The notes beneath the pieces are model-generated. The model had not been told where the DNA came from, did not search any database, and worked only from the letters and a program-made list of their open reading frames with translations. Made by a program: the position numbers and the translations under genes. Below, piece by piece: positions 1-61,507 of a stretch of DNA of 64,000 nt. The first letter of the stretch is position 1. Each line of letters opens with the position of its first letter. Source of the stretch: an uncultured Candidatus Saccharibacteria bacterium (GTDB taxonomy: Bacteria > Patescibacteriota > Minisyncoccia > Phycocordibacterales > Phycocordibacteraceae). The DNA is taken from NCBI GenBank assembly GCA_964638585.1, contig CAZXAN010000001.1:23454-87453 (forward strand), written 5' to 3'.

Positions 1-987
1 CATATTATGAAAGACTCAATCCCGCGTTCTCTCGCTCTCGGTATGGGTTCTATCACTGCACTTTTCCTCACGTCGCTCGCTTCAAGAGTAGGCACTGGCT
101 CTGTATCTGTTTTTACACTTGCCAGCAATCTAGAAGCGGTACCTTTATCGTTAATCGGTGCTTCATATGCTGTAGCGGCGTTCCCAGCGCTCTCTGAAGC
201 ATCGGCGCTTAAGAATAAAGATGAGTTCACGCGCGTTCTCTCATCAAGCGCGCGCCACATAATCCTCTGGTCTGTCGTGGCTGTAGGGCTAATTGCAGTT
301 TTACGCGCTCACATAGTCCGAATTATTCTTGGTAGCGGTGCATTTGATTGGAACGCGACGCGTCTCACGGCAGCTCTGTTAATTGTTCTTGCTGTCGGCT
401 TAGTCGCGCAAGGCCTTGTTCTTTTATTTTCTCGTGCGCTCTATGCCGCTAAGCAAAGTTGGCGACCGTTCTTTTATCAGCTTGCCGGAGCAGTGTTTAC
501 TGTGACGCTCGCTATCACGTTCTTGTCTATGGAAAATACTGCCATGCATTCTTCAATAAATTCTCTCCTGCGAGTTAGCGATGTGAGCGGAACAGCCATA
601 ATCCTAATCGCGCTTGCTGCCGCTCTCGGTCACATATTCCTTGTACTACTCTCTCTCGTTGCTCTAAAGAACATCGCTCCAGGACTGTCTTCTGGGCTAG
701 TTCTCCCGTTACGAGACGGAATTATTTCTGCTGTTGTTGGTGGTATTGCAACGTATGTCACTCTCTCTCTTCTTGGCGGTATAGCACCGCTCACGACTCT
801 CGCATCTGTCTTAATACAAGGAGTCATAGCTGGAGCAGTTGGGTCCGCATTTGTTGGCCTAACATTGTACTTATTGAAGAACCAAGAGTTTCTTGTAATG
901 GCTGGAGCACTTGATAGATTATTGCATTTGAATAGCGGACGCTCAGCTGTTCTAGAGCCATCGGCCGAAGAGCCTAAACAACCATGA
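1..987 (+). CDS. murJ: MOP-superfamily flippase, MurJ/MviN-like, C-terminal part (5' end runs off the window)
   Basis: The ORF is open from the window edge. It encodes a polytopic membrane protein with many hydrophobic helices, and its C-terminal region resembles MurJ-type lipid II flippases. Its stop overlaps the lepA start (ATGA). Confidence 0.45.
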   Translation, partial: HIMKDSIPRSLALGMGSITALFLTSLASRVGTGSVSVFTLASNLEAVPLSLIGASYAVAAFPALSEASALKNKDEFTRVLSSSARHIILWSVVAVGLIAVLRAHIVRIILGSGAFDWNATRLTAALLIVLAVGLVAQGLVLLFSRALYAAKQSWRPFFYQLAGAVFTVTLAITFLSMENTAMHSSINSLLRVSDVSGTAIILIALAAALGHIFLVLLSLVALKNIAPGLSSGLVLPLRDGIISAVVGGIATYVTLSLLGGIAPLTTLASVLIQGVIAGAVGSAFVGLTLYLLKNQEFLVMAGALDRLLHLNSGRSAVLEPSAEEPKQP

Positions 988-2801
988 ACACAGAACACAT
1001 ACGAAATTTCTCTATAGTTGCGCATGTTGACCACGGTAAATCTACGCTTGCTGACCGGTTACTGGAGCGCACTGGCACTATCCCAGACAGACTTATGCGT
1101 GACCAATTTTTGGACAGAATGGATCTGGAGCGCGAGCGCGGTATCACGATTAAGATGCAACCAGTCCGGATGAAATATAAAGAGTACGTGATGAATCTAA
1201 TAGACACGCCAGGACACATAGACTTTTCATATGAAGTTTCGCGTGCATTAAAAGCAGTTGAGGGGGTGCTTTTGCTCGTTGACTCTACACAAGGTGTTCA
1301 GGCGCAGACTCTGACGACTCTCGGCGCAGCAAGGGCTGCAAATTGCACTATCATCCCTGTCGTCTCAAAGATAGATTCTCCCGCAGCGAGAGTTCATGAG
1401 GTGAGCGCGGAGCTGGCAAAACTTTTAAAAGTATCTGTAGACGATGTGATAGCTGTGTCAGGTAAGACAGGAGAAGGTGTTGAGGAATTGCTAGAGGCAA
1501 TAATTAAGCGTATACCGCCGCCGACAAGGTTAAACCTTGCGAATTCTAAAGGTTTAACCTTGTCGGCGGAGCCACGTGGAATTATTTTTGATTTCTCATA
1601 TTCAACACACAGAGGTATCGCAGTGTACTTGCGCGTCTTAGATGGCACGTTCAAAAAAGGTCAACAATTAAGATTCCATTCGGCTCATAATGAGTTTATT
1701 GCACTAGAAACAGGCATATTTGCCCCAGAAGAAAAGGCTTCAGAAGAGCTGTCTGCAGGCGAAATAGGATACATCGTGACCGGCATCAAAGAGCCAGGTA
1801 TCGTTGGGGTAGGTGACACCATAGGTGCTGTACATGGCAAGCTAGCAGCTCTAGATGGCTATGAGAAGCCTAGACCGGTCGTATGGGCGTCTGTGTATCC
1901 AGAAAATCAAGATGATTTGCCGTTACTAAGAAAATCTCTAGAGAGACTGCGTCTCTCGGATTCTTCACTCTCGTTTGAGGAGGAATCGTCCGGAGTCTTG
2001 GGTAGGGGATTCAGATGTGGTTTTTTGGGCCTTCTGCACCTAGAAATAATCACAGAACGTCTGCGACGCGAATATAGTTTAAAACTGGTTGTCACAATTC
2101 CCACTATTTCATACGTAGTCACTAGAACAAACGGAACGCGAGAAACCATATACACTCCGTCACGGTTTCCAGAGCACGGCGACATAGCGAAGATAGAAGA
2201 GCCGTGGGCTAGAGTCATCATCATCACGCCTCCGTCGGTCGTCAGTTCTCTGATTCAACTTCTCTATGATCACGAGGCAAATACTATGGCAACAGAGTCG
2301 TACCAAGATGGGAGAATAGAGATGACTATAGAGATGCCGCTTCGCGAGCTCATGCGCGGATTCTTTGATAAATTAAAAAACATTTCTTCTGGTTATGCGT
2401 CTCTCTCATATGAGATACTCCCAGAGCGCGAGGCAGATGTAGCGAGACTAGATGTGTTGGTGGCCGAAGAGCCGGTCGCCGCATTTGCGCGCGTGGTCGC
2501 GCGCAGAAGGATAGTAGAAGAGGGAGAAAAAATGGTAGAAAAATTGCACTCAATCCTGCCGAAACAGCTTTTCAATACAAAGATTCAAGCAAAAGTAGAA
2601 GGGAGAATAGTCTCGTCACGTACTCTCTCTGCAATGCGAAAAGACGTTACTGGTTACTTATATGGAGGAGACGTCTCGCGCAAAAACAAGTTGCTTGATA
2701 AACAGAAGCGCGGTAAGAAGAAAATGCTAGAAAGGGGAACGGGTAAAGTAAATATACCCGAAGACGTCTTTATGAAAATGGTGCAGTCTTCTTCAGAGTA
2801 G
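984..2801 (+). CDS. lepA: Translation elongation factor 4 (LepA/EF4)
   Basis: The N-terminus reads NFSIVAHVDHGKSTLADRLL, a G1 P-loop, followed by DTPGHIDF. A full EF-G-like domain order is present and the length is about 600 aa. Confidence 0.95.
   Translation: MNTEHIRNFSIVAHVDHGKSTLADRLLERTGTIPDRLMRDQFLDRMDLERERGITIKMQPVRMKYKEYVMNLIDTPGHIDFSYEVSRALKAVEGVLLLVDSTQGVQAQTLTTLGAARAANCTIIPVVSKIDSPAARVHEVSAELAKLLKVSVDDVIAVSGKTGEGVEELLEAIIKRIPPPTRLNLANSKGLTLSAEPRGIIFDFSYSTHRGIAVYLRVLDGTFKKGQQLRFHSAHNEFIALETGIFAPEEKASEELSAGEIGYIVTGIKEPGIVGVGDTIGAVHGKLAALDGYEKPRPVVWASVYPENQDDLPLLRKSLERLRLSDSSLSFEEESSGVLGRGFRCGFLGLLHLEIITERLRREYSLKLVVTIPTISYVVTRTNGTRETIYTPSRFPEHGDIAKIEEPWARVIIITPPSVVSSLIQLLYDHEANTMATESYQDGRIEMTIEMPLRELMRGFFDKLKNISSGYASLSYEILPEREADVARLDVLVAEEPVAAFARVVARRRIVEEGEKMVEKLHSILPKQLFNTKIQAKVEGRIVSSRTLSAMRKDVTGYLYGGDVSRKNKLLDKQKRGKKKMLERGTGKVNIPEDVFMKMVQSSSE
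1518..1569. repeat. Perfect inverted repeat inside lepA CDS (21-bp arms ccgccgacaaggttaaacctt, 10-nt spacer containing GAATTC)
   Basis: Read directly: arms 1518-1538 and 1549-1569 are exact reverse complements. The repeat encodes an extra segment (TRLNLANSKGLTLSAEP) between the G domain and domain II, relative to canonical LepA. Confidence 0.8.
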
Positions 2802-3090
2802 AGAGATCGCGTCGACCATCGAACACACGGAGTATTCGAATACTTTCTGAGTCCATTGCTTGTTCATAGAAAACGATCCACGGTTTCATCGTAAAGCTAC
2901 GCGGGTTCCCAGCGAGCTCTTTATGCGTTCGGCCGATATCTGGCCAGTGAGCGAGCAGGGTAAATAGATGGTAGAAGCGCGTGAGAATTTTTTCTGCCAG
3001 AGTATCGTCGCTGACGAGTTCTAGATATTTTGCGAGCAAAGCAAGGTCATTTGTTGCTTCCTCCGAAAGAACAAAGTACGGCTCGCGCAT
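2770..3090 (-). CDS. parE: Type II toxin, ParE/RelE family
   Basis: 106 aa with the ParE-like pattern (..KPWIVFYEQAMDSESIRILRVFDGRRD..). It sits immediately downstream of a small ORF in classic antitoxin-toxin order. Confidence 0.65.
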   Translation of the reverse strand: MREPYFVLSEEATNDLALLAKYLELVSDDTLAEKILTRFYHLFTLLAHWPDIGRTHKELAGNPRSFTMKPWIVFYEQAMDSESIRILRVFDGRRDLSTLKKTAPFS

Positions 3091-3099
3091 GTGCGGATA

Positions 3100-3324
3100 T
3101 TATTTTATAGCAATCGCTCGTCGGAACTCCGCGTGAGTGCGTATCGTGGTTTTCTTGCCTCGCCGAAGCGATGCTCGCGCCGCCTTGAGCGCAGTATCAA
3201 GTGCGCGGAGATTGCGTGTTACGAATCGGCTCGTGAACGCTCCGTCTGCAGACGCTCCACGTCCACTTCCGCGAAGGTCCTGCTGATTGTAAGTAAGTGT
3301 CTTCATATGCAGAAAGTATAGCAT
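3100..3324 (-). CDS. Putative antitoxin partner of the ParE-like toxin
   Basis: 74-aa basic ORF directly upstream of the toxin, with a 9-bp gap. The family is not recognised from sequence; the call rests on position only. Confidence 0.4.
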   Translation of the reverse strand: MLYFLHMKTLTYNQQDLRGSGRGASADGAFTSRFVTRNLRALDTALKAARASLRRGKKTTIRTHAEFRRAIAIK

Positions 3325-4312: not shown

Positions 4313-4666
4313 ATGCGCGGGAGACAATTAAGACAGGGATTACTGATAGGGTTTTTGTTGCTCGTCGCAGGCTGGCTGATCTCGCTTATCTGGGGGCTCT
4401 CTGGCAAGGTACAAATAGCTGTCCAAGAGGCTCATAATGCAGAGAGGCAATATAAGGCGCTTGAGGAGCGCAAAGCGGTTCTGCAGGCGAATATTGCCGC
4501 GCTCGCGACTGAGCGAGGGCAGGATGCCGCCATTCGCACCGCTTTCGGGGTCGCGCGCCCCGGAGAAGAGGTTATCGTAGTTGTGCCACCAGAGCCTTCC
4601 ACTACGACACAGTCTCTTTCTTGGTGGCAGAAGATATTGAGTTGGTTCCCAGCCAAAAGCCCATAG
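4313..4666 (+). CDS. ftsB: Septum formation initiator (FtsB/DivIC-like)
   Basis: 117 aa with an N-terminal TM, a coiled-coil segment (QEAHNAERQYKALEERKAVLQANIAAL) and a short Pro/Thr-rich tail. This is the typical FtsB/DivIC architecture. Confidence 0.5.
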   Translation: MRGRQLRQGLLIGFLLLVAGWLISLIWGLSGKVQIAVQEAHNAERQYKALEERKAVLQANIAALATERGQDAAIRTAFGVARPGEEVIVVVPPEPSTTTQSLSWWQKILSWFPAKSP

Positions 4667-4718
4667 GGCATTTAGGCGGGCCCGCCCCAATGGCGCAACG
4701 CCTTTGGGCTGGGTTAAT

Positions 4719-4789
4719 GCGGAATTGGTTTAGTGGTAGAACAGATGCTTCCCAAGCATCGGGCGGGAGTTCGATTCTCCCATTCCGCA
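4719..4789 (+). tRNA. tRNA-Gly(CCC)
   Basis: Cloverleaf read by hand: acceptor GCGGAAT/ATTCCGC, D-arm GTTTAGTGGTAGAAC, anticodon stem GATGC/GCATC with loop TTCCCAA, T-arm GGGAGTTCGATTCTCCC. CCA is not encoded. Confidence 0.85.
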
Positions 4790-6921: not shown

Positions 6922-7051
6922 CAGATATGTATTGGGTACAAGTCGCAGTCCCCTTGTGGGGGAGCGGCAGGGCGAGGGTTTCGACATTGACTATAGACAT
7001 AGATATAGCGTATATTCAGCCTCGGACACATCATCTTATAGAGAGGGGCAA

Positions 7052-7777
7052 ATGGAAACCGAAGGAATTGAACGGTATTTGAAAGTAGAATTTCGAAACA
7101 AGAATCTGCTCACGCAGGCGCTTACTCATCGGTCGTACATCAACGAAAACCGTAAATGGCCAGTCCCTCACAACGAGCGATTGGAATTGCTCGGCGACGC
7201 AGTACTCGAGCTGATTGTTACCGAGTATCTGTTGAAAGCTTTCCCTAAAGAACCCGAGGGGAGGATTACAGAATTGCGATCTGCGCTGGTGTGTACCTCG
7301 ATGCTTTCTCAAGTTGCGGATGACTTACGCATATCCCGCTTCATGTTCCTCTCACGGGGACAGAAGAAAGACAACGAACGTGCACAGCAGAAAATTTATG
7401 CAGATGCGGTCGAAGCCATATTCGGAGCTCTCTATGTCGACCAGGGTATCGCTGAAGTAGAAAAGTTAGTTTCGCGTCTCATTCTGCGCGAGCTAATGGA
7501 CATAATCAAGGCAGGCACAAAACCTGCAAAAAGTTTGGTCCAAGAGTTTGCGCAGGAGCACTTCGGCGTGACCCCCAGTTATAAAACAATAGAAGCAACA
7601 GGCCCAGATCATGCGAAATGTTTCAGGGTCGCCATCTGTCTCGGGAACGACATCCTTACGTCCGCAGTAGGATTATCAAAGAGTGAAGCCGAGACTGAAG
7701 CTGCAAAGATTGGTTATACAGCATTACGATTCAAACTTCGCTCACGAGAGACAGAGGAAGAAGATATAGAGGAATAA
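7052..7777 (+). CDS. rnc: Ribonuclease III
   Basis: The RNase III signature NERLELLGDAVLELIVTEYL is followed by a C-terminal dsRBD. Start placed at METEGIERY, which has a GAGAGGGG Shine-Dalgarno; the track ORF begins upstream at 6932. Confidence 0.9.
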   Translation: METEGIERYLKVEFRNKNLLTQALTHRSYINENRKWPVPHNERLELLGDAVLELIVTEYLLKAFPKEPEGRITELRSALVCTSMLSQVADDLRISRFMFLSRGQKKDNERAQQKIYADAVEAIFGALYVDQGIAEVEKLVSRLILRELMDIIKAGTKPAKSLVQEFAQEHFGVTPSYKTIEATGPDHAKCFRVAICLGNDILTSAVGLSKSEAETEAAKIGYTALRFKLRSRETEEEDIEE

Positions 7778-8396: not shown

Positions 8397-10118
8397 TCAC
8401 GGACTTGCCAGATAATCCATACGGATGTTGGCTATTGTCGCACGAAGCTTCTTGTCTCGCTCAACTATCCACTTCATCCGCTGGCAAGCATGGAGCACGG
8501 ACGTATGGTCTCTCTTGAATATCTTTGCTAGCTTGACCAAACTGAAGTTGAAGTCCAAGTTAAGCAAGTACATCACGAGGTGACGTGGCCACACGAATGA
8601 ACGGCGCCGAGACACACCGAGAACGTCATCCACACTTACACCGTACGCTTTAGCTACCGTCTGAAGTACTTTTTGTGAAGCGTCTTCTTTTTCTAATGTA
8701 ACGACAGAGCCGACATCTGCGACGATTGGATCCTCTTCCGGTGGCTCGACTACAACTGCGGGTTCGCGATCAAGCTGTATAGCTCGTAAAACCTTCTTCA
8801 CAGCTCGAGCCGCGACTTGACGAGCATACTCGCGCGTGAAGCCGAACTTGTTTCCGATGTCCTCGAGCGTGAACGACCTGTCGCCGTTAACTCCGGTTCT
8901 GAGACTGAGTACCTCCCGTTCTTGTTGTGTAAGTGTACGGAAGGCTCGCTCTACTTCATCGGCGTTAGCCCTTTCCATCAAGACATCTTCTTGGGTCGGA
9001 CTGGTATCGGCAATGAGATCGAGGAGAGGAGTGTCACTATCTCCAACCTCTTCGTCCAAGGAAACCATATTTTGGAAGCGAAGCGCCTCTTCGAGAAGAT
9101 TGGCCTCGCTGGGAGCGAGCTCCATTGCCGACGTAACCTCTCGGAACGTCGGTTCGCGACCTAGTGTGCTTGTGTACTCGCGTCGTGCCTTAAAGTACTT
9201 GCGCATAGTCTCACACAAGTGAACGGGAATGCGAACTATCCGATCGGTATCCATGATCGCTCGTGTGATGACCTGGCGGATCCACCACGTGGCATACGTA
9301 GAAAACTTGTAGCCGAGATGATAATCGAACTTCTCGACCGCTTTCAGTAGCCCGATGTTTCCCTCCTGAATTAGATCGAGAATGGTGAGACTTTCTGCAG
9401 TGCGAGTGTAGCGTCTCGCGATTGAAACCACGAGCCGCAAATTCGCCTTGATGAATCGCTCTTTGGCGACATTGTCTCCCTTTTCGATCTTTTGCATCAA
9501 TGCCACTTCCTCGTCCCTTGAAAGAATCCTGAACTGTCCGGCCTCCTGCAAGTATTTGTACAAGAGGTCATCGTGGTCCGCCCAGGGCAATTCGTACAAA
9601 GGTTTTGAGGTGACGAGTGGGTCTTCGATATCTTCAATTGCTTCTTCTACCGAGAGATCGACTTCTGCGAGAGTTGAAACATCTTCCGTTGCCGATTCTT
9701 CGACCTCGATTAAAGGCTCGTCGACTCGATTTGTCGGATAGAGTGGTGTGGCGCTAGGCCTCGAAACCACTTGTTTCTTCGGAAACTCCAGTACTTCCGC
9801 CTTGCCCGATACGCCGAGCTTGGCATTTTTCAGATATTCGCCCAGCTGAGTGACAAAGAATGAGAGAAGCTCTCGGTCTTTAATCACGCGAGCTGGCAGT
9901 AGTTCGGTAATTTCCGTAGGAGTTATATACCCGCGGCGTTTCGCGATTTCCAGGATGTGCGAATTCTTTGAGTTTAAGGTCCGTTTATTAAGTTCAGCCA
10001 GGAACGAAGGCACTACTTCTCCCATATTTACGACATTGGTCTTGTTCATTCTTACCCCTGTAAACGTTTGAGTGGTTAGTGGAAAGATCGGGTTTACAAT
10101 CTGATGCAAATCTCGCAT
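8397..10118 (-). CDS. rpoD: RNA polymerase sigma-70 factor (RpoD-like) with a C-terminal DnaA domain-IV-like DNA-binding domain
   Basis: Regions 1.2 through 4 are recognisable ([18 protein letters not shown].. and the 4.2 [30 protein letters not shown]). An extra roughly 100-aa tail, [34 protein letters not shown].., matches the DnaA C-terminal DnaA-box-binding domain almost motif for motif. The true start may be the internal Met at about 10049. Confidence 0.9.
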
Positions 10119-10228
10119 ATCTTACACAGCTTGTCAACGTATAGACAGACTGCCGTTTTAGTGTAAAGTTATTTTCGGAACGGTTTTTTTGACTTCAATC
10201 AAACGCTAGACAACAGGAGAACAAAATC

Positions 10229-12301
10229 GTGCTTACTCCCTTTGGGTACCAGCAGGAATGTCTTGCAGTTACGGAAGCAGCGCGTCGTGACCATGAAAAA
10301 AGAGCTCTCGTCGTAATGGCAAGCGGGCTTGGAAAGACTGTTACCGCCGCGTTTGACGCCAAGTCATGGCGCCAGAAGAACACGGGTCGGTATCTCTATC
10401 TCTGCCACCAGAACGATATTCTCTATCAGGCCAAGACAACCTTTGAGGGTATCGTTGATCAAGGACAGACCTATGGGTACTTCCATGGGCAAGAAAAAAG
10501 CGCCGGGGCTGATTTTCTTTTTGCGTCGCTTCAGACGATGGAGCGCCACAAAGAGTCTTTTGACCCTCGTGCGTTCGCGTATATTCTGGTTGACGAAAGT
10601 CACCATTCTAGTGCGCGGACGTATCGCACCACAATCGAGTATTTTAAGCCGGATTTTTTGTTGGGGGTGACCGCTACTCCCGATCGGCTTGATGAACTTA
10701 ACATCCGCGATATCTATGGTGAGGAGGTGTACTCCTTGCCACTCGACGAGGCTATGGCGAGAAAGTTGGTAACACCAGTGGATTATCGGCTCCTCACTGA
10801 CGAAATACAACTTTCTGGCTACATTGAAACCGGCGGGGGGCGAATGAGCATCAACAAGCTCAATCGGAAGATTTTCATCCCGCGTCGGGATGAGGAGATT
10901 GCGAAAATCATCGCTCGTCATGTCAGTGGTGTGAAAAGTCCTCGCGTTATTATCTTCTGCAATTCGGTTCAGCACTGCGACCACCTGGCCAAGTTTATTC
11001 CGAACTGTTTCGCCATCCACTCGCGCGTTCCGTTAAAAGAGCGCGCCGTACGGTTGGAGCTGTTTCGGCAAGGCTTGGTAGGCACGGTGCTCGCCGTTGA
11101 CGTCTTCAACGAGGGTATAGACATACCACAGGCGAATGTCATCGTTTTCCTGCGGTCAACTGACTCTCCGACAGTCTTTCTCCAGCAATTGGGGCGAGGT
11201 CTGCGGAAGAATGAGGAAAAAGAAAAAGTGATCGTCCTAGATTTTGTCGCTAACTGCGAACGGATCAAGATGGTGCACGACCTCTATCAGTCGGTTGAAC
11301 GAAAAAAACAGCAAGTGCAAAAACAGTCGCAGCAGTCGAGCGGGCTTGAACCGATGACACTCAACATCAAGACGGGTGAATTCAAGGAAAAAATAGTACC
11401 CATTCTTAATCTGTTGGAACGGGTTCATCCGAGCTTCTATCCGACGTGGAAAGAGGCTGCAGAGGCCGCCTGCGAGCTCGGTGTTGGTTCAAAGGACGAG
11501 TACGCGAAGCTGTACCTGAAAGACCCACGCCTCCCGTCTAGCCCGCGCTACACATACCGCACCGATTTCCCAGGCTGGGAAATCTTCCTCGGCAAGCGAA
11601 CGGCAGAACGATACGAAACGTGGCAAGAAGCGAGCAAGGCCGCCATAGCGCTTGGTATAAAAACGCCAGCTGAATATAAAGAGCGATATACCGAGGACAC
11701 TAAACTACCGGCTGACCCGCCGTCATACAAAGAGTGGCCACGGTGGCCAGTGTTTCTGGGAGGCGAATTGAGAGACCTCTATCCTGACTGGGAGCAAGTA
11801 GCGAAGGTGTGCAAACACCACAAAGTTCAGTCGGTGGCCGAGTACTGGGACCTGTGTGATAAGGACAAGCGATTGCCACGACGACCCCATGATGTCTACG
11901 AAGACTTCCCGGGATTTGCGAAAATGCTTGGTACTAAGCGCATCGTTGAGGACCCATATCCGACCTGGCAGGAAGCGAGTAGAGCTGCAAAAGAGCTTGG
12001 CATAAAAAGTTCTTTTGATTACACGAAGAAGTACAAAAAGAATACTCAGCTCTATGCAGCGCCCGCCGATCGGTACCCGGATTTCCCTGGATGGGCTACC
12101 TTCTTAGGTATTCCAGAACGAGAAGTTGTTCAGGATCCATACCCGACGTGGCAAGAAGCAGGAAGAGCCGCAAAGACTCTAGGGATCCAGAGCGGGACTG
12201 AGTATCACCAACGGCGTCGAGAAGATCCACGTCTGCCCGGAGTGGTTCATCGATATAAAGGGTTCCCGGGCTGGAACAAATTCCTGGGTAAATCTCGCTA
12301 A
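10229..12301 (+). CDS. SF2 DEAD/DEAH-box helicase (ResIII-like) with five C-terminal helicase-associated (HA) repeats
   Basis: Walker A MASGLGKT and motif II VDESHH are present, followed by a Helicase_C region (QQLGRGLR). The C-terminal 290 aa comprise five repeats of about 55 aa each, YPTWQEAxRAAKELGIxSxxEY..LPxxPxxY.xFPGWxxFLG. GTG start with AGGAGA Shine-Dalgarno. Confidence 0.8.
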   Translation: MLTPFGYQQECLAVTEAARRDHEKRALVVMASGLGKTVTAAFDAKSWRQKNTGRYLYLCHQNDILYQAKTTFEGIVDQGQTYGYFHGQEKSAGADFLFASLQTMERHKESFDPRAFAYILVDESHHSSARTYRTTIEYFKPDFLLGVTATPDRLDELNIRDIYGEEVYSLPLDEAMARKLVTPVDYRLLTDEIQLSGYIETGGGRMSINKLNRKIFIPRRDEEIAKIIARHVSGVKSPRVIIFCNSVQHCDHLAKFIPNCFAIHSRVPLKERAVRLELFRQGLVGTVLAVDVFNEGIDIPQANVIVFLRSTDSPTVFLQQLGRGLRKNEEKEKVIVLDFVANCERIKMVHDLYQSVERKKQQVQKQSQQSSGLEPMTLNIKTGEFKEKIVPILNLLERVHPSFYPTWKEAAEAACELGVGSKDEYAKLYLKDPRLPSSPRYTYRTDFPGWEIFLGKRTAERYETWQEASKAAIALGIKTPAEYKERYTEDTKLPADPPSYKEWPRWPVFLGGELRDLYPDWEQVAKVCKHHKVQSVAEYWDLCDKDKRLPRRPHDVYEDFPGFAKMLGTKRIVEDPYPTWQEASRAAKELGIKSSFDYTKKYKKNTQLYAAPADRYPDFPGWATFLGIPEREVVQDPYPTWQEAGRAAKTLGIQSGTEYHQRRREDPRLPGVVHRYKGFPGWNKFLGKSR

Positions 12302-12329
12302 CCAGTTGTCCTTTGTTCTCATTCACACG

Positions 12330-12362
12330 CCACAGATGATGAGTCTGTGGTGTTTTCTTTTT
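12330..12362 (+). terminator. Intrinsic terminator of the helicase gene
   Basis: Hairpin ccacaga-tgatgag-tctgtgg followed by tgttttctttttt. Confidence 0.6.
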
Positions 12363-12369
12363 TACATAT

Positions 12370-12401
12370 AAAAACCACAGACTACTTACGAGAGTCTGTG
12401 G
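12370..12401 (-). terminator. Intrinsic terminator of the minus-strand small HTH gene (same stem sequence as the facing terminator)
   Basis: On the minus strand, hairpin ccacagact-ctcgtaagt-agtctgtgg followed by TTTTT. Confidence 0.55.
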
Positions 12402-12606
12402 TACGGAAGTTTTTCTTTTTATGTTTGGCGAGTTTCTTGCGGAAGTAGCCAGCCATTATGGCATTCACTGTGTAGTTATCTAGACCTATTTCTCGTATCT
12501 GTTTCGAAAGTCGAAGAATAGTAGCGACCTCGTCGTCACTCATTCCGTATTCGCGTGCAATGTCTTGAAGTGAAATCATGTCTGATTCTCCATGGAAACC
12601 ATCCAT
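12382..12606 (-). CDS. Small HTH-containing protein (sigma-70 region-4-like helix-turn-helix)
   Basis: 74 aa. The segment ISLQDIAREYGMSDDEVATILRLS looks like a helix-turn-helix. Weakly supported. Confidence 0.3.
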   Translation of the reverse strand: MDGFHGESDMISLQDIAREYGMSDDEVATILRLSKQIREIGLDNYTVNAIMAGYFRKKLAKHKKKNFRTTDSRK

Positions 12607-12682
12607 AGATATAGTACCGAGATAATTCTGTGAAAGTTACTCCTCATATGAAATATTTTGAGTCCATTTTATAGAAACGAAA

Positions 12683-12712
12683 AGCCCACGATGTAGCTTG
12701 GGGCTAATCGTG
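12683..12712 (-). terminator. Putative intrinsic terminator
   Basis: A 7-bp stem (cccacgat/atcgtgg) has a T-rich tail on the minus strand, downstream of the 12734..13231 gene. Confidence 0.3.
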
Positions 12713-12733
12713 GACCTGGTGCAACCTGCGCTG

Positions 12734-13231
12734 CTAGACTGTCGGAAGGAAGTCCGGTGCATCTGGATCTGATGCCAGGAGTGTCGCGTAGTGAGTCGCT
12801 TCAGCGCACAGAGCAGCCGAATTCATTCGTGCGAACATCTCGTCAAAGTACGGCTGAACTCCGCTGACAGCGCTGATGACGCCGTCGACGATAGCGCTAC
12901 CCCAGTACAGCGGATCTCCTGGAAGAAGCATGTGTGGTTTGGTCATGATAACGTCGCGTGACGAGAGTCCCGTTCGCCACGAAATCATGGCTTTGCCGTA
13001 CGCATACTTGCGGTACGGCCACTTCCATTCCGCTTCGACGCCGAATGAGTACTCGAATAGAATCGGGAGGGGCCGTCCGTTTTCATATCGAATGTTTGGG
13101 TCGAGAGCGACTATATGCAAGTCTCCACCTTTGACGTGATTACCGCTGATTGCATTCCTGATGCCAGGGAGTACGAACGCCTCAAAAGCATTATATGCTT
13201 TCGTTTTGTCGAGAAACGGTATTGGATTCAC
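12734..13231 (-). CDS. Hypothetical protein, possibly GlcG/HbpS-like (DUF336)
   Basis: 165 aa and GC-rich. There is a weak resemblance to DUF336 heme-binding proteins (GSAIVDGVISAVSGVQ). Confidence 0.3.
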   Translation of the reverse strand: MNPIPFLDKTKAYNAFEAFVLPGIRNAISGNHVKGGDLHIVALDPNIRYENGRPLPILFEYSFGVEAEWKWPYRKYAYGKAMISWRTGLSSRDVIMTKPHMLLPGDPLYWGSAIVDGVISAVSGVQPYFDEMFARMNSAALCAEATHYATLLASDPDAPDFLPTV

Positions 13232-13457
13232 TTGAAAGTCTCCGGTTTGGGTTATTGAGAAAGTACTATCGTCCGTATTGACGATACTTGCTTTATAATA
13301 TATTGATTGATTATTGTCAAATTCTCTGGATGAAGGATGCTCCCGTTTTTGTTATCGAGTAATCTCTATTAGAAAAAAGCAGTCCCCTTTGGGGTTCAAA
13401 ACTGTTTGGTATGAAAAAGTGAACCGCCTCCCAACGGTTCTGTTGGTGGCGGCTGCT

Positions 13458-13853
13458 CTATTGCCTCAACGTTGCGAAGTAGTCACGCCAGGTGGTTCCT
13501 TTCGTATGGTCACGCGGCACGAATTTTTCGATCAGCATGACCTCGATGTCGATATTAAGCGGAGAGAGTCGCTCCACAATTTTCTCGAGCTCATCAGCCG
13601 ACGCCTTTGACCCAATCACACGAAGAAAGGGTTGACCTCCGCCATCAGTGTCGACTACCGTGTCGTCGTACAGCGTAAGAACGACGTCCTTCTCGTACGA
13701 GGCCCCCTTAAGCAGTCTCTTCGTCGCCAGATATACCGCGCTACAGTCCGATGCTTCGGGAAAGCCGTGGAACTCAATGTTCGGCATTACATTCTCCTTA
13801 AGGATGGTGGATGCAAACCAGTTTCCCGGTTCGCACGTTTGCACTAACGCCAA
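13458..13853 (-). CDS. Hypothetical protein translationally coupled to the upstream XRE regulator
   Basis: A TTG start lies 1 nt after the XRE stop, and an internal Met (MPNIEFHGF..) is an alternative start. No family recognised. Confidence 0.35.
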   Translation of the reverse strand: MALVQTCEPGNWFASTILKENVMPNIEFHGFPEASDCSAVYLATKRLLKGASYEKDVVLTLYDDTVVDTDGGGQPFLRVIGSKASADELEKIVERLSPLNIDIEVMLIEKFVPRDHTKGTTWRDYFATLRQ

Positions 13854-13854
13854 C

Positions 13855-14139
13855 TTATTTTGCCCGATTGAGAATAGGCTGAACAGAAAGTAAAAGTTCG
13901 CGCTGGAGTCTCTTTATCTCGTCCTCGGGATGCTGAATCGATTCGGCGACGAAAACGAGTTGGGAGAGTCTCAGTCCAAGAGCTTTTGCGATTTTTTGTG
14001 CGGTCTGCAACGATATTCCGCGCTGGTCCTTTTCAATTCGTGTGATAGCCGACGGCGACAGCCCAGTTCTTTTTGCAAGATCCTTCCCAGAAAGATCAAT
14101 GTTCTTTCGTGCGAGTCTTATTGCTAAACCGATCTTCAT
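13855..14139 (-). CDS. XRE-family HTH transcriptional regulator
   Basis: LSGKDLAKRTGLSPSAITRIEKDQRGISLQTAQKIAKALG is a canonical Cro/CI-type HTH. Confidence 0.75.
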   Translation of the reverse strand: MKIGLAIRLARKNIDLSGKDLAKRTGLSPSAITRIEKDQRGISLQTAQKIAKALGLRLSQLVFVAESIQHPEDEIKRLQRELLLSVQPILNRAK

Positions 14140-23265: not shown

Positions 23266-23457
23266 CTCGGTGAGTTATTCGCCCCAGCAGGGCTCAGTTA
23301 TGGGTTAAAATGTATCTATGCCTCCAGAAGAAACCCCAACACCAGACGCTTCGCATTCCGCGGCGGCGAGCCCGCGAGTCTGCGAGCGGGCGAGTAAGCA
23401 TTAGGGCGTGGTATTCTGTATGAAATGAGTTCGAGCGAATTCATATAGACTCACCAT

Positions 23458-28274: not shown

Positions 28275-29501
28275 TTACGAAGTGAGTGATCGATTCCCGT
28301 CTGCTTTAAATTCTGTAGAGAACTCGCCTCTGAGTGCTCGGTAGTAGCCGGCCAGCGCAATCATGATGGCATTATCGGTAGTCAAACTAGGAGCAGGAAG
28401 CAGGAGGCGGCAAGCAGGGAATGAAGACGCCATTTCACGAGTAAAGACTCGGCGTATGTGAGTGTTCGCTGAGACCCCGCCGCCAATAACAAGCGTTTGC
28501 GCGCCAGTCTCTTCAAGCGCCTGCGCCGTCTTCTTCCACAGCACATCTGCAACCGCGTTTTCAAATTCGTGCGCTAGATGCTGTTTTTCTTCATCACTCA
28601 AATCTGGTTTATCTTTCAATAAATACAACACTGCTGTTTTCAGCCCCGCAAACGAGAAGTCGCACGTGCCCGAATCTATCATCGGCCTCGGCAATGTGAA
28701 GGGTTTCGTAAATCCTTCATCTAATGAAGGATTTACGAAACCCTTCATGAGAAGTGATTCGGACAGTTTAGAAAGTTCGGGGCCGCCAGGGTAGGGGAGG
28801 CCGAGCATGCGCGCGACCTTGTCATAGGCTTCGCCGACTGCATCGTCGCGCGTCTGACCTATGAGCTCATATTTCAACCATTCTTTCATTAGCACTAGTT
28901 CTGTGTGGCCACCAGAAATGAGAAGCGCAAGCACGGGCAATTTTATATCTTTGATTTTGAGCTCGTCGTCGCTGCCCGCCGAAGGCGGGGCGACATGATT
29001 TCGGCTTGCTAATGCCGAAATCACATGTCCTTCCATATGATTCACCGCCACCAGAGGCTTGTCCCAGACGAGCGCAAGAGCTTTCGCGAAGTTGATGCCC
29101 ACCCATAGCGCAGGTTCTAGACCTGGACCTGCTGTTACGGCTATCGCGTCTATTTCGGGCGGCTCGCATTCAGAAACGAATTCAAAAAAGACTTCTACGA
29201 GGCCGGGCTCACGCGCCAAAATTTCTGAAATTTTGGCGCGTGATTCTTCTGGTATCGCCTGAGCATCTTCATGCAGAAGTTCTGCCTCTTCGAGCGCTGC
29301 TTCCAGAATTGGTACAAGATTCTTCGCGTGCTCGCGCTTCGCGAGAGCAGGGAAGACCCCGCCGTATTCTTTATGAACTTCTATCTGCGAAATAAGTGCA
29401 TTCCCGAGCACAGAGAATGTTGCACTGGACTGGTCTCCACTGCATTCAAGAATCGCAATCGCCGTTTCATCACAACTTGTCTCAATGGCTAGGATTTTCA
29501 T
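28275..29501 (-). CDS. tsaD: tRNA N6-adenosine threonylcarbamoyltransferase
   Basis: MKILAIETSCDETAIAIL.. and a Kae1/TsaD fold throughout, plus the HMEGH metal site. The track ORF extends a further 57 codons upstream; start placed at the canonical MKIL. Confidence 0.9.
   Translation of the reverse strand: MKILAIETSCDETAIAILECSGDQSSATFSVLGNALISQIEVHKEYGGVFPALAKREHAKNLVPILEAALEEAELLHEDAQAIPEESRAKISEILAREPGLVEVFFEFVSECEPPEIDAIAVTAGPGLEPALWVGINFAKALALVWDKPLVAVNHMEGHVISALASRNHVAPPSAGSDDELKIKDIKLPVLALLISGGHTELVLMKEWLKYELIGQTRDDAVGEAYDKVARMLGLPYPGGPELSKLSESLLMKGFVNPSLDEGFTKPFTLPRPMIDSGTCDFSFAGLKTAVLYLLKDKPDLSDEEKQHLAHEFENAVADVLWKKTAQALEETGAQTLVIGGGVSANTHIRRVFTREMASSFPACRLLLPAPSLTTDNAIMIALAGYYRALRGEFSTEFKADGNRSLTS
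28697..28747. repeat. Perfect inverted repeat inside tsaD CDS (24-bp arms tgaagggtttcgtaaatccttcat, 3-nt spacer cta)
   Basis: Arms 28697-28720 and 28724-28747 are exact reverse complements, 51 bp and in frame. The repeat encodes about 17 extra residues (..MKGFVNPSLDEGFTKPF..) in a loop that is short in canonical TsaD. Confidence 0.85.
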
Positions 29502-44733: not shown

Positions 44734-44849
44734 CGAGTTTTGAGGATATCAGATGTCCACAAAACTACTCAAAAAAGCCTGATTGGTGCTTGATTTCAAT
44801 ATCGTCGCGCTCATAACGCCCAAGAATCACATCTCTTGAGAATTCTTTA

Positions 44850-45663
44850 GTGAGGGACGTCTAACGTCCCTCACTCGAAGGACCCGGTGCTGTGTAGTGC
44901 AGAGTCGTCAGGTATATTGCGGCCGAGAATCACGTCTCGGGCGTACTCGCGGTAATCATCTGGACTGTAAAGCGATGTAAGGAACTTCTTGTCGACAATT
45001 GGCCGATTGAAAGTTCCAACATAATCACCTAGGCTCGAATACGGATATGCACTCGCCCAGGCATAGGCTTCGTTAAAGTTACTCCGCGCCCAATTGTAGC
45101 CCTTAGGGTGAACATCGAATGCGTTTTTCACTTGGATGTACGCCGATACGTATCGGAAATAATTGTCATCGTCCACAGTTCGCGCACAATATGAACCTTG
45201 GAAGAGGGATCCTTTTTCACAATAGCGTTCGTTAAATTTCTTTGCCATCCCGGTGCCTAGACGATGCATAAAGCGTACGACACCACCTTCCTTGATTTCC
45301 TGGAGCAGAAGGTGAAAGTGATTCTCGACGAGTCCAAAAGCGACTAGTCCAACATGTGAATCACGTTCTGGCCAATGAGGTGGCCGCTCGAAGGTTCGGT
45401 GAACGTGAGCGTCATATAAATCGCGATGCCAATTTGGAGAAGTGAAGCTGTCGTTGAAGTGAGTCAGCATCAGCAAGAATCTGAATCGATCTGCCTCATC
45501 ACGAACGATAGGTAATCCTCGCGTTCCTCGTTGAACGACGTGAACGTACGACCCAATGCTGAACGGCTCCTTCCGCATACACCAATCATACACGACCTGA
45601 GGGACGTTAGACGTCCCTCAAATGTCCTTGTGTGCATAAGTGAGGGACGCTAAGCGTCCCTCA
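44850..45663. mobile_element. REP-RAYT unit: IS200-like tyrosine transposase flanked by three REP palindromes
   Basis: GAGGGACG-N5-CGTCCCTC at 44850-44874 overlaps the RAYT stop. GAGGGACG-N5-CGTCCCTC at 45598-45620 lies 5 nt upstream of the start. GAGGGACGC-N3-GCGTCCCTC sits at 45641-45663. Confidence 0.7.
44871..45593 (-). CDS. REP-associated tyrosine transposase (RAYT; IS200/Y1-transposase-like)
   Basis: YVHVVQRGTRG..FLLMLTH.. and the HUH motif ENHFHLLLQE, then FMHRLGTGMAKKFNERYCEKGSLFQGSYCAR (catalytic Tyr region) and WARSNFN..SSL. Collinear with PF01797-type RAYTs. Confidence 0.75.
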   Translation of the reverse strand: MYDWCMRKEPFSIGSYVHVVQRGTRGLPIVRDEADRFRFLLMLTHFNDSFTSPNWHRDLYDAHVHRTFERPPHWPERDSHVGLVAFGLVENHFHLLLQEIKEGGVVRFMHRLGTGMAKKFNERYCEKGSLFQGSYCARTVDDDNYFRYVSAYIQVKNAFDVHPKGYNWARSNFNEAYAWASAYPYSSLGDYVGTFNRPIVDKKFLTSLYSPDDYREYARDVILGRNIPDDSALHSTGSFE

Positions 45664-46024
45664 GGAAAAAGTATTGAAGCCGCGACCCAGTTTGCCAACA
45701 CGCGATAGTCTTCAAATTGAAAGCCCCGCGACAAAAGTTCATCGCGGGGCGGCATCACATATTTCGTCACATTTGTAAGTAATTTCACGACGATCTGGCC
45801 GACGACCAAGACAGAATCACCGTGCAGACATGAAAGACGTTCGACCGTTGCTTTAGCCACGACAAACAATGCGGCAAGCAATCCGGTGTTCTTCATACCC
45901 ACAAATCTGTCAGTATCCTAGCGCACATGGTTGTTTTTGTCAAGGTATCCCCGCAAACTGAGAGACAGCACGACCTCCCGCTGGGGAGGTCGATGCGTGT
46001 TCCGATATTGCACTTGCCGGAGCG

Positions 46025-47816: not shown

Positions 47817-48521
47817 GTGTCGCAGGGGATAACATTTTGTGCTACAATATACGCAATGGTTATCACGCATCACGGGGGTCAATGTATCAAGGTTACCTTC
47901 GGCGATTTGACGCTCGTCTTTGATCCTATCTCTAAAAGTGGCACTCTGCCCGCAGTGCGATTCGGCGCCGATATCGCCCTAGTCTCGCGCGACCATCCCG
48001 ATATGAATGGCGTTGACGAAGTGACTTACGGCGACAAAAAGCCTTTTGTTGTGAACGGCCCCGGCGAGTACGAGAGAGGAGGCGTAGTGATACAAGGATT
48101 CCTCTCACACAGTGCGTACAACTTGGCGGCGAAACACCCAAGCAACTTGGGTGTTTCGCCGCCAAGTTTCGTGAATACTATATATAGTGTGCAACTTGAG
48201 GATATGACTCTAGTGCATCTCGGTGCATTGTCTGACACTGAACTGTCACAAGAGGCGCGCGAGAGCATTGACGAGATAGATGTATTGTTTGTGCCGATTG
48301 GTGGTGAAGGTGTTCTATCTGCTTCAAAGGCGCACGAACTCGCGGTGTCGCTAGAGCCAAAGATAATAGTACCTATACATTGGCAAGGAGTGGGTGCGCC
48401 GAAATCTCTTGAAGCATTTCTTAAAGAGGCTGGTAATGGGAATGAAAAAGTTGATAAGCTCACACTTAAGAAAAAGGATTTGACGACTCTTGAAGGGAGT
48501 ATAATGGTTATAACTCAATAA
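47817..48521 (+). CDS. MBL-fold metallo-hydrolase (UPF0173-like)
   Basis: MVITHHGGQCIKVTFGDLTLVFDP.. and later DVLFVPIGG, consistent with Lactamase_B_3. The start may be the internal Met at 47856. Confidence 0.55.
   Translation: MSQGITFCATIYAMVITHHGGQCIKVTFGDLTLVFDPISKSGTLPAVRFGADIALVSRDHPDMNGVDEVTYGDKKPFVVNGPGEYERGGVVIQGFLSHSAYNLAAKHPSNLGVSPPSFVNTIYSVQLEDMTLVHLGALSDTELSQEARESIDEIDVLFVPIGGEGVLSASKAHELAVSLEPKIIVPIHWQGVGAPKSLEAFLKEAGNGNEKVDKLTLKKKDLTTLEGSIMVITQ
48121..48167. repeat. Perfect inverted repeat inside the MBL-hydrolase CDS (22-bp arms acttggcggcgaaacacccaag, 3-nt spacer caa)
   Basis: Arms 48121-48142 and 48146-48167 are exact reverse complements. The repeat encodes NLAAKHPSNLGVSPPS in frame. 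Confidence 0.85.
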
Positions 48522-56176: not shown

Positions 56177-56252
56177 ATCCAGCACCTAGTTTTGTTGCAA
56201 AACTAGGTGCTGGATAAAAAAAGGCCACCGCAAGCGGTGGCCTTTGAGTTTG
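56177..56252. terminator. Bidirectional terminator region: an 18-bp perfect palindrome with 3-nt loop (56177-56215), then a GC hairpin ggccaccgc-aa-gcggtggcc plus T-tract
   Basis: atccagcacctagttttg / caaaactaggtgctggat are exact reverse complements. The second hairpin at 56223-56242 is followed by tttgagtttg on the plus strand and has a T-run on the minus strand. The region sits between the convergent pilin-like operon and the 56261 gene. Confidence 0.6.
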
Positions 56253-60715: not shown

Positions 60716-61507
60716 TCAAACGACTTCTACGCAAATCGGGTGATGGTCGGATCCAAATCTATCAGTAATTACTTCTGCTTTTTTTATTGAAAACGTGTGT
60801 GAGACGAGGATGTGGTCTAGCTGTGAGCGCGAGAGCTGGTGCGTGATGGAGCCGGCGAGGGTGTTGACGAGTTCGTGCTGAACAAATCGCTCTTGGATAT
60901 TCGTGCGTTCGCGTCGGTGTAAGAACGCATCGCTCACTTTTCCTCCCAGAATCCAATTTAATATGGAGATATGTGGTGCCTCTATGGTGTTGAAGTCCCC
61001 GCAGACTACCGTCGGCTTTGATGAGTCGCGCTCGGCCATAGCCATTTCAAATTCTTTCAGTCTCCAAGCTGGTTGGGCGAGGATGAGATGTAAGTTAAAT
61101 ACTCGCAAAGACTGTTTGTCTGTCTTTATGTCAACGTAGAGAGCACTGCGATTGCGAATCTTTGTGAATAGTTGATTTGGCATAATCATTACGAACAAAC
61201 GCGTGCGTAGCGGTAAGAAGTGCCAGTATTCAGGGAAGGCGATGCCACCTTGCGAAGTAATCGGATGTTTCGATAATGTCACTACGTAGTTATGAACAGT
61301 ACCCCAAGGATAGAGCAGCTCTCGCTCGCTGCGAAACGCTATGTGATATGGGAGGCTCTGCAAACGTTTTAGAAATTTCTCTGGTACTTCTTGCAGACAG
61401 AAGATATCGAAGTCAGATGTAGATATGAAATCAAAAGCGCGATCCAATTCGCGGTTTCTACAAAGCATGTTCCATGAGTAGATTTTCATTTTTATGTGCG
61501 ATGCCAA
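60716..61507 (-). CDS. Endonuclease/exonuclease/phosphatase-family nuclease (Xth/ExoIII-like)
   Basis: MKIYSWNMLCRN.. and FCLQEV.., with a C-terminal SDHHPI motif typical of EEP nucleases. Confidence 0.65.
   Translation of the reverse strand: MASHIKMKIYSWNMLCRNRELDRAFDFISTSDFDIFCLQEVPEKFLKRLQSLPYHIAFRSERELLYPWGTVHNYVVTLSKHPITSQGGIAFPEYWHFLPLRTRLFVMIMPNQLFTKIRNRSALYVDIKTDKQSLRVFNLHLILAQPAWRLKEFEMAMAERDSSKPTVVCGDFNTIEAPHISILNWILGGKVSDAFLHRRERTNIQERFVQHELVNTLAGSITHQLSRSQLDHILVSHTFSIKKAEVITDRFGSDHHPICVEVV

Follow-up and report, generated by a model that had tools for sequence, protein, structure and literature searches.

The 64,000-nucleotide stretch analyzed here (the window; positions 23,454 to 87,453 of contig CAZXAN010000001.1, from an uncultured Candidatus Saccharibacteria bacterium) contains lepA, the gene for elongation factor 4 (EF4), and a long perfect palindrome lies in frame inside this gene. 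We think it likely that the palindrome is an in-frame copy of a hairpin element of bacteria of the Candidate Phyla Radiation (CPR; Paceibacterota) that resembles repetitive extragenic palindromic (REP) sequences and their inverted doublets, the REPINs. The best reading of the sequences is that this hairpin family is tied to a CPR family of Y1 transposases resembling the REP-associated tyrosine transposases (RAYTs), and that it would behave like a Rickettsia palindromic element (RPE). In what follows, L-numbers designate fetched loci or contigs and P-numbers designate protein homologues.

The host gene (984..2801, + strand) encodes a protein of 605 residues that matches the Pfam families GTP_EFTU (1e-54), LepA_C (1e-32), EFG_C, and EFG_III, and the top matches among 8000 scored homologues are named elongation factor 4 and come from metagenome-assembled genomes (MAGs) of Patescibacteria/Paceibacterota. 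The palindrome spans 1518..1569 (+) and consists of a left arm, CCGCCGACAAGGTTAAACCTT (1518-1538), a 10-nt spacer, GCGAATTCTA (1539-1548), with GAATTC at 1541-1546, and a right arm, AAGGTTTAACCTTGTCGGCGG (1549-1569). An earlier note, made from the sequence alone, had described this 21/10/21 arrangement in frame in lepA, and our check confirmed it: the right arm matches the reverse complement of the left at every position. The encoded peptide is P179-P180-TRLNLANSKGLTLSA (P179 P180 T R L N L A N S K G L T L S A195). The outer six base pairs of the stem are host-derived: CCGCCG (1518..1523, +) corresponds to the codons Pro179-Pro180 of the conserved IPPP motif, and CGGCGG (1564..1569, +), within the codons of Ser194-Ala195, is an inverted copy of these proline codons. 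The element proper (1524..1563, +) matches the family pattern described below and is a REPIN-like doublet of two mini-palindromes, each with a 3-nt center, ACAAGGT-TAA-ACCTTG (1524-1539) and AAGGT-TTA-ACCTTGT (1549-1563), separated by a loop that is shorter than the family loop TGGGGATTGATTCTTA and is a variant of it specific to LepA.

Such a structure is far beyond chance. In the window, perfect palindromes with arms of 12 nt or more number eight (24, 23, 21, 18, 17, 12, 12, and 12); in 30 Markov-1 simulations, the average was 0.1 and the longest arm was 13. The lepA palindrome is predicted to fold at -41.2 kcal/mol as RNA (z, -7.9) and at -26.1 kcal/mol as DNA (z, -7.8), and an Rfam scan of the window at the gathering threshold returned tRNAs alone.

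The unit of the family is a perfect mini-palindrome of 15-17 nt, (A)CAAGGT-NNN-ACCTTG(T), with a 6-7-bp stem and a 3-nt center; two inverted units around a short spacer form a long hairpin, a REPIN-type doublet with the core ACAAGGT-NNN-ACCTT, loop, AAGGT-N'N'N'-ACCTTGT, and the lepA copy is such a doublet. Related copies are associated with lepA in other genomes: a MAG whose LepA is 76% identical carries CCGACAAGGTCGAACCT/12 nt/AGGTTCGACCTTGTCGG at the same site of the gene (L012), and a Kaiserbacteria MAG carries AACAAGGTTCAACCTT/13 nt/AAGGTTGAACCTTGTT immediately 3' of the lepA stop codon (L011). Scanning metagenomes with the pattern ACAAGGTNNNACCT-N(6-18)-AGGTNNNACCTTGT, derived from the lepA-associated copies, returned at least 138 copies on at least 120 contigs, and zero matches among 2.9 million viral contigs; on the latter result, a phage origin of the family was rejected. 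Among the matches listed, several contigs bear two or three copies, some of them with three hairpins per ~10 kb, and in 116 of 130 doublets the central NNN of one unit is complementary to that of the other. The fetched loci contain 189 units, 156 of them inside doublets and 33 single; direct tandem arrays with a 17-nt unit and a period of ~24-31 nt also occur in place of inverted doublets (L181, 2190-2290; L127, 3192-3259; L145, 3861-3901; L146, 2597-2632). Loops are mostly variants of TGGGGATTGATTCTTA, in both orientations, and spacers span 6-17 nt, in a few classes of length; the whole element measures ~40-56 bp and encodes ~13-18 residues.

Outside the core, the flanks are inverted-complementary, typically over 3-7 bp and most often over 6, and direct repeats of the kind that terminal-inverted-repeat elements leave as target-site duplications were not found. 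The outer 4-6 bp form the subfamilies gcaaa/tttgc, aaaaat/attttt, and gagt/actc, and, because the same flanks recur at unrelated sites, they belong to the element. An origin of the complementary flanks by inverted duplication of the target was thus largely rejected, the outer stem in lepA, made of host proline codons, being the exception.

The core is free of stop codons: its frames TRxNLV, QGxTL, and KVxPC are open in essentially every case, and only TRxNLV can be closed, when NNN starts with AA, AG, or GA. A copy whose length is divisible by three and which sits in a permissive surface loop would therefore simply be translated. We counted a copy as intragenic when it had at least 30 codons inside an open frame of at least 150 codons. 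By this criterion, 47 of the 124 copies with enough flank (~38%, among the matches listed) are intragenic. Pfam placed the element inside an intact family in 18 of 20 frames scanned, namely in TopA (3), GatB (2), UvrC (2), TsaD (2), LigA, ArgRS, UvrB, AlaRS, CysRS, GluRS, PriA, Dus, a class-V aminotransferase, and a HAD hydrolase; of the remaining two frames, one had no Pfam match and the other had frame coordinates that do not enclose its element. In-frame copies thus occur in at least 15 protein families including LepA, their translation being deduced from the intact frames alone. Their commonest reading frame is TRxNL, and, among the matches listed, 6 lie in the same orientation as the coding strand and 15 in the opposite one. 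Among the 77 other copies listed, 58 follow a stop codon by at most 60 nt, on one side or both, and 16 are flanked by A-runs or T-runs. Particular positions are occupied repeatedly. They include the linker site in LepA (copies in L203, L012, L207, L209, and L210; variant forms in L211 and L212) and the spot directly after the lepA stop codon (L011 and L203, the same intergenic spot being occupied in L209). The TsaD loop before LPRPM is a third: L095 and L173 have a copy of the ACAAGGT family there, the window has a hairpin of another family, and L197 has other inserts.

The link between these hairpins and a transposase rests on genes of the Y1 family that they bracket. In L087, L109, L114, L136, and L137, CAAGGT-NNN-ACCTTG units, single or as inverted doublets, lie on either side of a Y1 gene, no more than about 10-40 nt from its start and stop, and the Y1 genes of L146 (which carries two paralogues), L110, L011, and L035 are flanked by hairpins that are variants of the same design. 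As a check free of ascertainment, two further Y1 homologues were picked through their proteins alone, P0135 (L215/L216) and P0167 (L218): ACAAGGT-NNN-ACCTTGT hairpins lie immediately upstream of both genes, and each gene has a further one at or just beyond its 3' end. Together, eight flanked loci were found (L087, L109, L114, L136, L137, L215, L216, and L218), and P0135 occupies the same syntenic place in two Zambryskibacteria MAGs. Some of these genes also contain an in-frame unit of their cognate hairpin near residue 52 (KLQGRTL or KRQGSTL; L087, 445; L215, 10157; L218, 6256), a position conserved across distant members that could mean autoregulation, and the gene of L215 has another unit in its last codons. 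Between closely spaced copies of the hairpin (L104, L126, L192, L163, and L186), where a transposase was sought, we found ordinary genes only. A TnpA of the IS200/IS605 insertion sequence type (HVHLLL motif) directly follows lepA in L038 (11987-12463).

Four of five Y1 proteins scanned, that of the window included, passed the Pfam Y1_Tnp threshold, and the fifth (L137) scored 20.9 bits versus a cut-off of 23. The sole NCBIfam match of the four non-window proteins is REP_Tyr_transpos, at 27-47 bits versus a cut-off of 80, and since the RAYT model is the sole match and yet is matched well below its cut-off, we describe these proteins as distant RAYT-like. The family is large in CPR, with at least 7922 clusters at E <= 1e-10 of ~220 residues, named only 'transposase'.

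The window itself encodes a RAYT-like Y1 homologue of the IS200 superfamily (240 residues; 44871..45593, - strand; PF01797 Y1_Tnp, 38 bits versus 23) with the HUH motif ENHFHLLL and the tyrosine motif AYIQVKN; its sole NCBIfam match is also REP_Tyr_transpos (17 bits versus 80). A tblastn search of all fetched loci placed homologues of it in ten places (27-35% identity; motifs PNHFHLL and YIHLNP), among them the Y1 proteins of other CPR contigs whose genes have the lepA-type hairpin on their flanks. The window gene is bracketed (44849-45665) by three hairpins of a single family, (T)GAGGGACG-NNN-CGTCCCTC(A), also written TGAGGGACG-NNN-CGTCCCTCA, which differs from that in lepA: one, AGTGAGGGACGT-CTA-ACGTCCCTCACT (44849..44875), lies at the 3' end of the gene and overlaps its stop codon, and two GAGGGACG hairpins lie just upstream (45596..45665; 45598-45620 and 45641-45663). 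No GAGGGACG hairpin beyond these three was found in the window, and the locus may represent either an insertion of the IS200 type or a RAYT accompanied by a REP family of its own.

The lepA element changes the protein at the junction between the G domain and domain II. Compared with EF4 of T. thermophilus (5IMQ and 4W2E) and LepA of Aquifex (2YWE), the window protein is longer by 9 residues at the insert, which lies after IPPP and before the domain II strand that comes first, and, in an alignment of 120 close homologues, the distance from PPP to EPRG is 15 residues in the window protein versus 6-9 in most and up to 31 elsewhere. The insert thus lengthens the linker by about 8-9 residues, and the linker is hypervariable, being the only strongly length-variable site of that alignment; the PPP motif occurs in LepA both with and without an insert. 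In the AlphaFold model, the G domain is confident up to residue 180 and residues 183-194 form a coil with a predicted local distance difference test (pLDDT) score below 50, which weakly suggests that the insert is a coil in a surface linker, the model being poor overall (mean pLDDT, 55).

Occupancy of this site is patchy, even among LepA proteins at least 88% identical to that of the window, which carry the TRLNL insert, another insert, or none. The insert TRLNL(V/A)NSKG(S/L)TLS is present in the window protein, P0003, P0009, P0011, and P0022, and a RSNL...QGSTL insert is present in P0031 and P0082. About 20 orthologues, including P0002, P0005, and P0026, have SH(K/E)ATEG instead, whose DNA is a 6/15/6 hairpin, CCCTCC...GGAGGG (L206, 571-633; L213, 1029-1091), and three homologues have SRSEATMKTQVGS(R/H)SEPP, encoded in L214 by an 8/16/8 hairpin. 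Inspected as DNA, the SHKATEG and MKTQ inserts at the linker are thus short hairpins, of 6/15/6 and 8/16/8. P0002, 95% identical to the window protein outside the site, carries SHEATEG, and P0004 (88% identity) and P0019 carry no insert. The earlier note had proposed an extra segment at the domain junction and had made its reading depend on a lineage-specific insertion relative to close orthologues; both points are borne out, by the gap versus the solved structures, by the shorter linker of near orthologues, by P0004 without an insert, and by P0002 with a different one.

Other LepA proteins vary in ways that touch on this theme. The L215 Zambryskibacteria lepA (12131-14005) has an in-frame doublet of the ACAAGGT family, IPQGRTLNTDSQGSTF, forming a 13/14/13 hairpin in a G-domain loop, and, at its G/II junction, a second family-like segment, HQGQTLNTHSQGLTF, recognized from the peptide only. 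This G-domain loop, between MQPVRM and LNLIDTPGH, is a second insertion hotspot in other CPR lineages, and the L011 protein (9929-11866) has a 28-residue insert there. Two LepA clusters, P0099 (760 residues) and P0116 (796 residues), are ~160-190 residues longer and have a precomputed PF13366 match besides the LepA domains; their length may reflect a fusion, a mis-call, or an inserted nuclease-like gene.

The orthologous copies in lepA record how the hairpin evolves. Six long-loop copies were compared (window, L207, L209, L203, L210, and L012): four genomes have a perfect 21/10/21 palindrome, one has 17/12/17, and in one the palindrome has decayed slightly. At four positions of the stem, both members of the pair have changed. 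Covariation is seen in the central triplets (TAA/TTA, TGA/TCA, and CGA/TCG) and in the outer stem, with CCA/TGG in L203 and L209 and CACCG/CGGTG in L210. In L203 and L209, CCG>CCA in a proline codon goes with TCG>TTG (Ser>Leu) on the other side; in L210, CCG>TCA, which turns a proline of the conserved PPP into serine, is matched by GCG>GTG (Ala>Val). The arms are thus kept perfect through paired changes even where amino acids change, and the stem has grown into the host proline codons. L211 and L212 carry different perfect versions at the same linker (21/3/21 and 20/1/20), which are probably independent events. Identity at third codon positions is 0.24-0.48, i.e., saturated, in the 150 nt upstream versus 0.62-1.00 inside the element, and all orthologous lepA copies use the same codons in the element. 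Arm-to-arm correction alone cannot slow divergence, and we therefore invoke either selection at the nucleotide level or renewal of the copies; such selection would act on recognition by the Y1 protein or on another role at the nucleic acid level.

From these comparisons, we propose a mechanism modeled on IS200/IS605 and REPIN-RAYT systems. The Y1 protein would act on the hairpin in single-stranded DNA and would make or move copies without target duplication; a copy that lands in a permissive loop, with a length divisible by three, would add a translated peptide; and the perfection of the arms would be kept by selection for a hairpin that the Y1 protein can recognize, by hairpin-templated (template-switch) correction, or by both. 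For LepA, the insert would be a tolerated passenger rather than an adaptation. Mobilization, translation, and any function of the hairpin are all inferred here from sequence comparison.

Several observations weigh against this interpretation. Some concern the enzyme: the window Y1 gene is flanked by the GAGGGACG hairpin, so that no cognate enzyme for the lepA copy was seen in the window; with the NCBIfam RAYT equivalog NF047646, the Y1 proteins score 17-47 bits versus a cut-off of 80; and, at ~220-250 residues, they are longer than classical RAYTs. Others concern abundance, since the 64-kb window holds a single copy of the lepA family and its half-sites are not enriched there (17 and 13 observed versus 13.5 and 12.2 expected). 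The invariance of the core is partly built in, because the scan pattern fixed 22 core bases; the LepA copies and the Y1-flanking copies of L215-L218 are free of this bias. At the lepA site itself, the insert replaces part of the linker instead of being a pure addition, no pair of empty and filled sites precise enough to reveal the chemistry of insertion was found, and the orthologous copies are more conserved than expected of a purely selfish relic, which hints at a function or at repeated site-specific reinsertion.

Among the alternatives, a functional mRNA hairpin fares best, although we judge it unlikely. The structure would serve in the lepA transcript as an RNase III site, as a ribosome pause at the G/II boundary, or as a translation-dependent attenuator, its membership in the family being secondary and co-opted. 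RNase III cleaves perfect duplexes of roughly 20 bp, and the window palindromes, with stems of 17-24 bp, are about the length of its substrates; rnc, which the earlier note had placed nearby, lies at 6932-7777 and encodes a protein with Ribonuclease_3 and dsrm domains. The very stable predicted RNA fold, the covarying arms, the conservation of the element above synonymous sites, its insertion at a domain boundary, and the intergenic copies at gene 3' ends would all suit such a role. However, in-ORF copies occur in both orientations (ORF, open reading frame), and no excess of G:T (wobble) pairs was found among the mismatches of arms and flanks; these two observations disfavor a purely RNA-structural constraint, and there is no specific sign of a role at the RNA level. 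The sequence of the stem is kept, beyond what pairing needs, which suggests sequence recognition. Genes of 15 unrelated families, intergenic DNA, and the surroundings of a transposase gene all contain the same element, while close LepA orthologues do without it.

Still less probable, in our view, is that the 7-3-7 unit ACAAGGT-NNN-ACCTTGT is the site of a dimeric host DNA-binding protein or a DNA uptake sequence that accumulates by molecular drive, in the manner of DNA uptake sequences (DUS) and uptake signal sequences (USS). Its conserved half-sites around a free center, the single units (33/189) and direct tandem arrays, and its nucleotide conservation above neutral expectation are what such a site would show; DUS and USS likewise occur after genes and in frame, as inverted pairs; and the window encodes DprA, a DNA processing protein used in transformation (61492-62346). 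Yet a site bound in double-stranded DNA has no need of complementary NNN, which 116 of 130 doublets show; the copies lengthen the sequence as insertions and are not point-mutational conversions; and the tight flanking of a Y1 gene is unexpected for an uptake sequence. Nor does the window show the over-representation typical of DUS, its half-sites occurring at the expected frequency with one element in 64 kb.

We give very little weight to a local, de novo origin by template switching during replication, i.e., an inverted duplication of neighboring lepA sequence. Template switching can create and perfect a hairpin in one step (PMC8794818), and both the inverted host proline codons of the outer stem and the paired changes among orthologues resemble its products. 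The 40-nt core and the loop type, however, recur in other genes and beside Y1 genes, on no fewer than 120 unrelated contigs; the core cannot derive from lepA sequence. Template switching is plausible as a mechanism that maintains and extends the hairpin, not as its origin, and may explain the extension of the stem into the proline codons. Finally, a chimeric inverted junction from assembly or amplification, which multiple displacement amplification (MDA) or assembler errors can produce as a perfect palindrome, is refuted by the exact LepA protein and identical 52 bp in five assemblies (two from ENA and three from Logan, from different runs and two pipelines), by orthologous copies with sequence differences in other genomes, and by the intact frame.

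The preferred reading, a mobile REP/REPIN-like family with an in-frame copy in lepA, concerns one of five long palindromes in the window. The four others consist of different sequences, and only that in lepA matches the ACAAGGT core, so that a single repeat family for all of them was rejected. In tsaD (- strand), a 24/3/24 palindrome, MKGFVNPSLDEGFTKP (28697..28747), lies in frame in the loop before LPRPM, and a 17/1/17 palindrome encoding RAKISEILAR (29209..29243), also in frame, lies inside a TsaD insertion of ~30 residues and recurs nearly base for base in the TsaD orthologues of L197 (6704-6734) and L008 (11879-11907). A gene of the metallo-beta-lactamase fold (47817-48521) contains a 23/3/23 palindrome in frame (48120..48168, +), one arm of which resembles a single intergenic hairpin in L118, and an intergenic 18/3/18 palindrome at 56177..56215 is followed by a second, GC-rich hairpin. 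Hairpin sequences of the window other than that in lepA include GGGTTTCGTAAATCC..., AACTTGGCGGCGAAACACCCAAG..., and GAGGGACG..., and the common theme of these palindromes is perfect symmetry around a 1-3-nt center. The palindromes at 28697-28747, 48120-48168, and 56177-56215 that the earlier note had named all exist, that at 29209-29243 being additional. Its broader idea, a class of long perfect hairpins in both intergenic DNA and ORFs, is supported and extended: the ACAAGGT family occupies both settings on at least 120 contigs and in 15 protein families, and a relative of the tsaD 24/3/24 hairpin (GGGTTTCGTAAATCC...) lies in frame in MiaA (Pfam IPPT; L194, 5504-5546) with a compensatory change in both arms. 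It is to be qualified in that the long palindromes of the window belong to different families, the lepA family being present once in 64 kb, and in that the note did not include the likely engine, a Y1/RAYT-like gene family that these hairpins flank.

The GC-rich hairpin after the intergenic palindrome, GGCCACCGCAAGCGGTGGCC (56217-56245), is preceded by an A-run and followed by TTT, and looks like an intrinsic terminator between convergent genes. An imperfect overlapping palindrome of 39 nt, 77% complementary, with GGCGGGCCCGCC at its center, lies at 4648-4713, just upstream of a tRNA gene (4719-4789). Next to lepA, a gene of the ParE toxin family (2770-3090, - strand) converges on it and overlaps its last 32 nt, and a small ORF upstream of that gene (3100-3324) may be the antitoxin.

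A wider proposition, which we offer as a tentative one, is that CPR bacteria carry many co-diversifying hairpin/Y1 systems whose hairpins are not just tolerated but actively maintained at the nucleotide level in essential genes, with arms that stay perfect, cores conserved far past synonymous saturation, stems extended into host codons, and DNA symmetry overriding amino acid conservation. The outcome would be a lineage-wide remodeling of the loops and linkers of core proteins, possibly with a function at the nucleic acid level such as regulated cleavage, pausing, or replication-linked processing. If this were true, intragenic REPINs would help to explain many odd insertions in CPR proteins, and in-frame palindromes of the RPE type would gain a first candidate mobilizing enzyme. 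If the narrower interpretation of the lepA palindrome holds, it provides a concrete source for lineage-specific insertions in CPR, a testable pair of enzyme and substrate, and a natural example of palindromic symmetry in DNA dictating amino acid changes in a conserved motif. On the practical side, assemblies of CPR genomes break at hairpins of this kind, and gene calling and alignment are confused by them. We found no description of in-frame palindromic or REP-like elements from CPR/Patescibacteria in the searchable literature, which is no proof of absence.

How do these hairpins compare with known systems? The TIGR-Tas stem-loop arrays of CPR and phages were considered and rejected, since they are tandem arrays beside Tas genes with box C/D motifs and not dispersed hairpins within ORFs. 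Terminator-like hairpins, such as the pneumococcal SPRITE, and the paired uptake sequences of Neisseria share with the CPR family a position just after genes, often with T-runs, and the Neisseria sequences are also found inside ORFs in tolerated frames. In contrast to both, the CPR copies lengthen proteins and are linked to a transposase, and their half-sites are not enriched in the window. IS200/IS605 elements encode a Y1 HUH transposase, have subterminal hairpins at both ends, and move by a single-strand mechanism without target duplication (PMC6006769); these elements and their non-autonomous derivatives (palindrome-associated transposable elements and MITEs) share with our loci the Y1 HUH gene and the hairpins at both of its ends. 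Unlike IS200/IS605, however, the CPR Y1 genes match the RAYT model best in NCBIfam, one of them is syntenic in two MAGs rather than multicopy, and the dispersed elements are hairpins alone, with no other IS end sequences.

REP/REPIN-RAYT systems come closer. Their description is reportedly due to Nunvar in 2010 and to Bertels and Rainey in 2011. Shared with them are the short palindromic unit, its inverted doublets around a spacer, the singlets and more complex arrangements, and the dispersed copies, many at gene ends, some with A-run or T-run flanks, and without target-site duplications. Also shared are an IS200-related Y1 HUH gene flanked on both sides and a cognate hairpin variant for each Y1 gene. 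The published definitions of REPINs and RAYTs match these features, and hairpins on both sides of a Y1 gene are the arrangement that defines such systems (PMC3337134, PMC3116915, and PMC5581495). As for a single-copy, vertically inherited RAYT gene with many hairpins per genome, P0135, which is syntenic in two MAGs, may be of this kind; L146 has two Y1 paralogues, and the window has one copy of the lepA family. The differences lie in location, anatomy, and host. Classical REPs are extragenic by name and by observation, whereas 47 of the 124 CPR copies listed are in frame in genes, many of them housekeeping genes, and lepA is among them. Classical REPs are imperfect, whereas the CPR units, at 15-17 nt, are shorter and are perfect around a center of 3 nt, and no counterpart of the GTAG/CGTC tag of REPs was identified in them. 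REP/REPIN-RAYT systems have been described mostly in Proteobacteria; the present hosts are CPR/Patescibacteria, and copy number in the window is low.

Inside genes, the CPR hairpins resemble the RPEs, palindromic repeats that lie in frame in unrelated housekeeping genes and also in noncoding DNA (Ogata et al. 2000, reviewed in PMC10969869). RPEs are translated into added peptide segments at positions compatible with the fold, as the CPR copies would be, and both kinds of element are found in host-dependent bacteria with reduced genomes. As RPEs are described in PMC10969869, size and host set the two apart: RPEs are ~100-150 bp, imperfect, and specific to Rickettsia, whereas the CPR elements are perfect hairpins of ~40-56 bp in Patescibacteria. 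The mobilizing agent of the RPEs has been unknown since 2000, whereas the CPR hairpins are physically linked to a Y1 gene family. Two phenomena that have so far been separate, the extragenic REP/REPIN-RAYT systems and the in-frame RPEs, thus both appear in a single CPR system.

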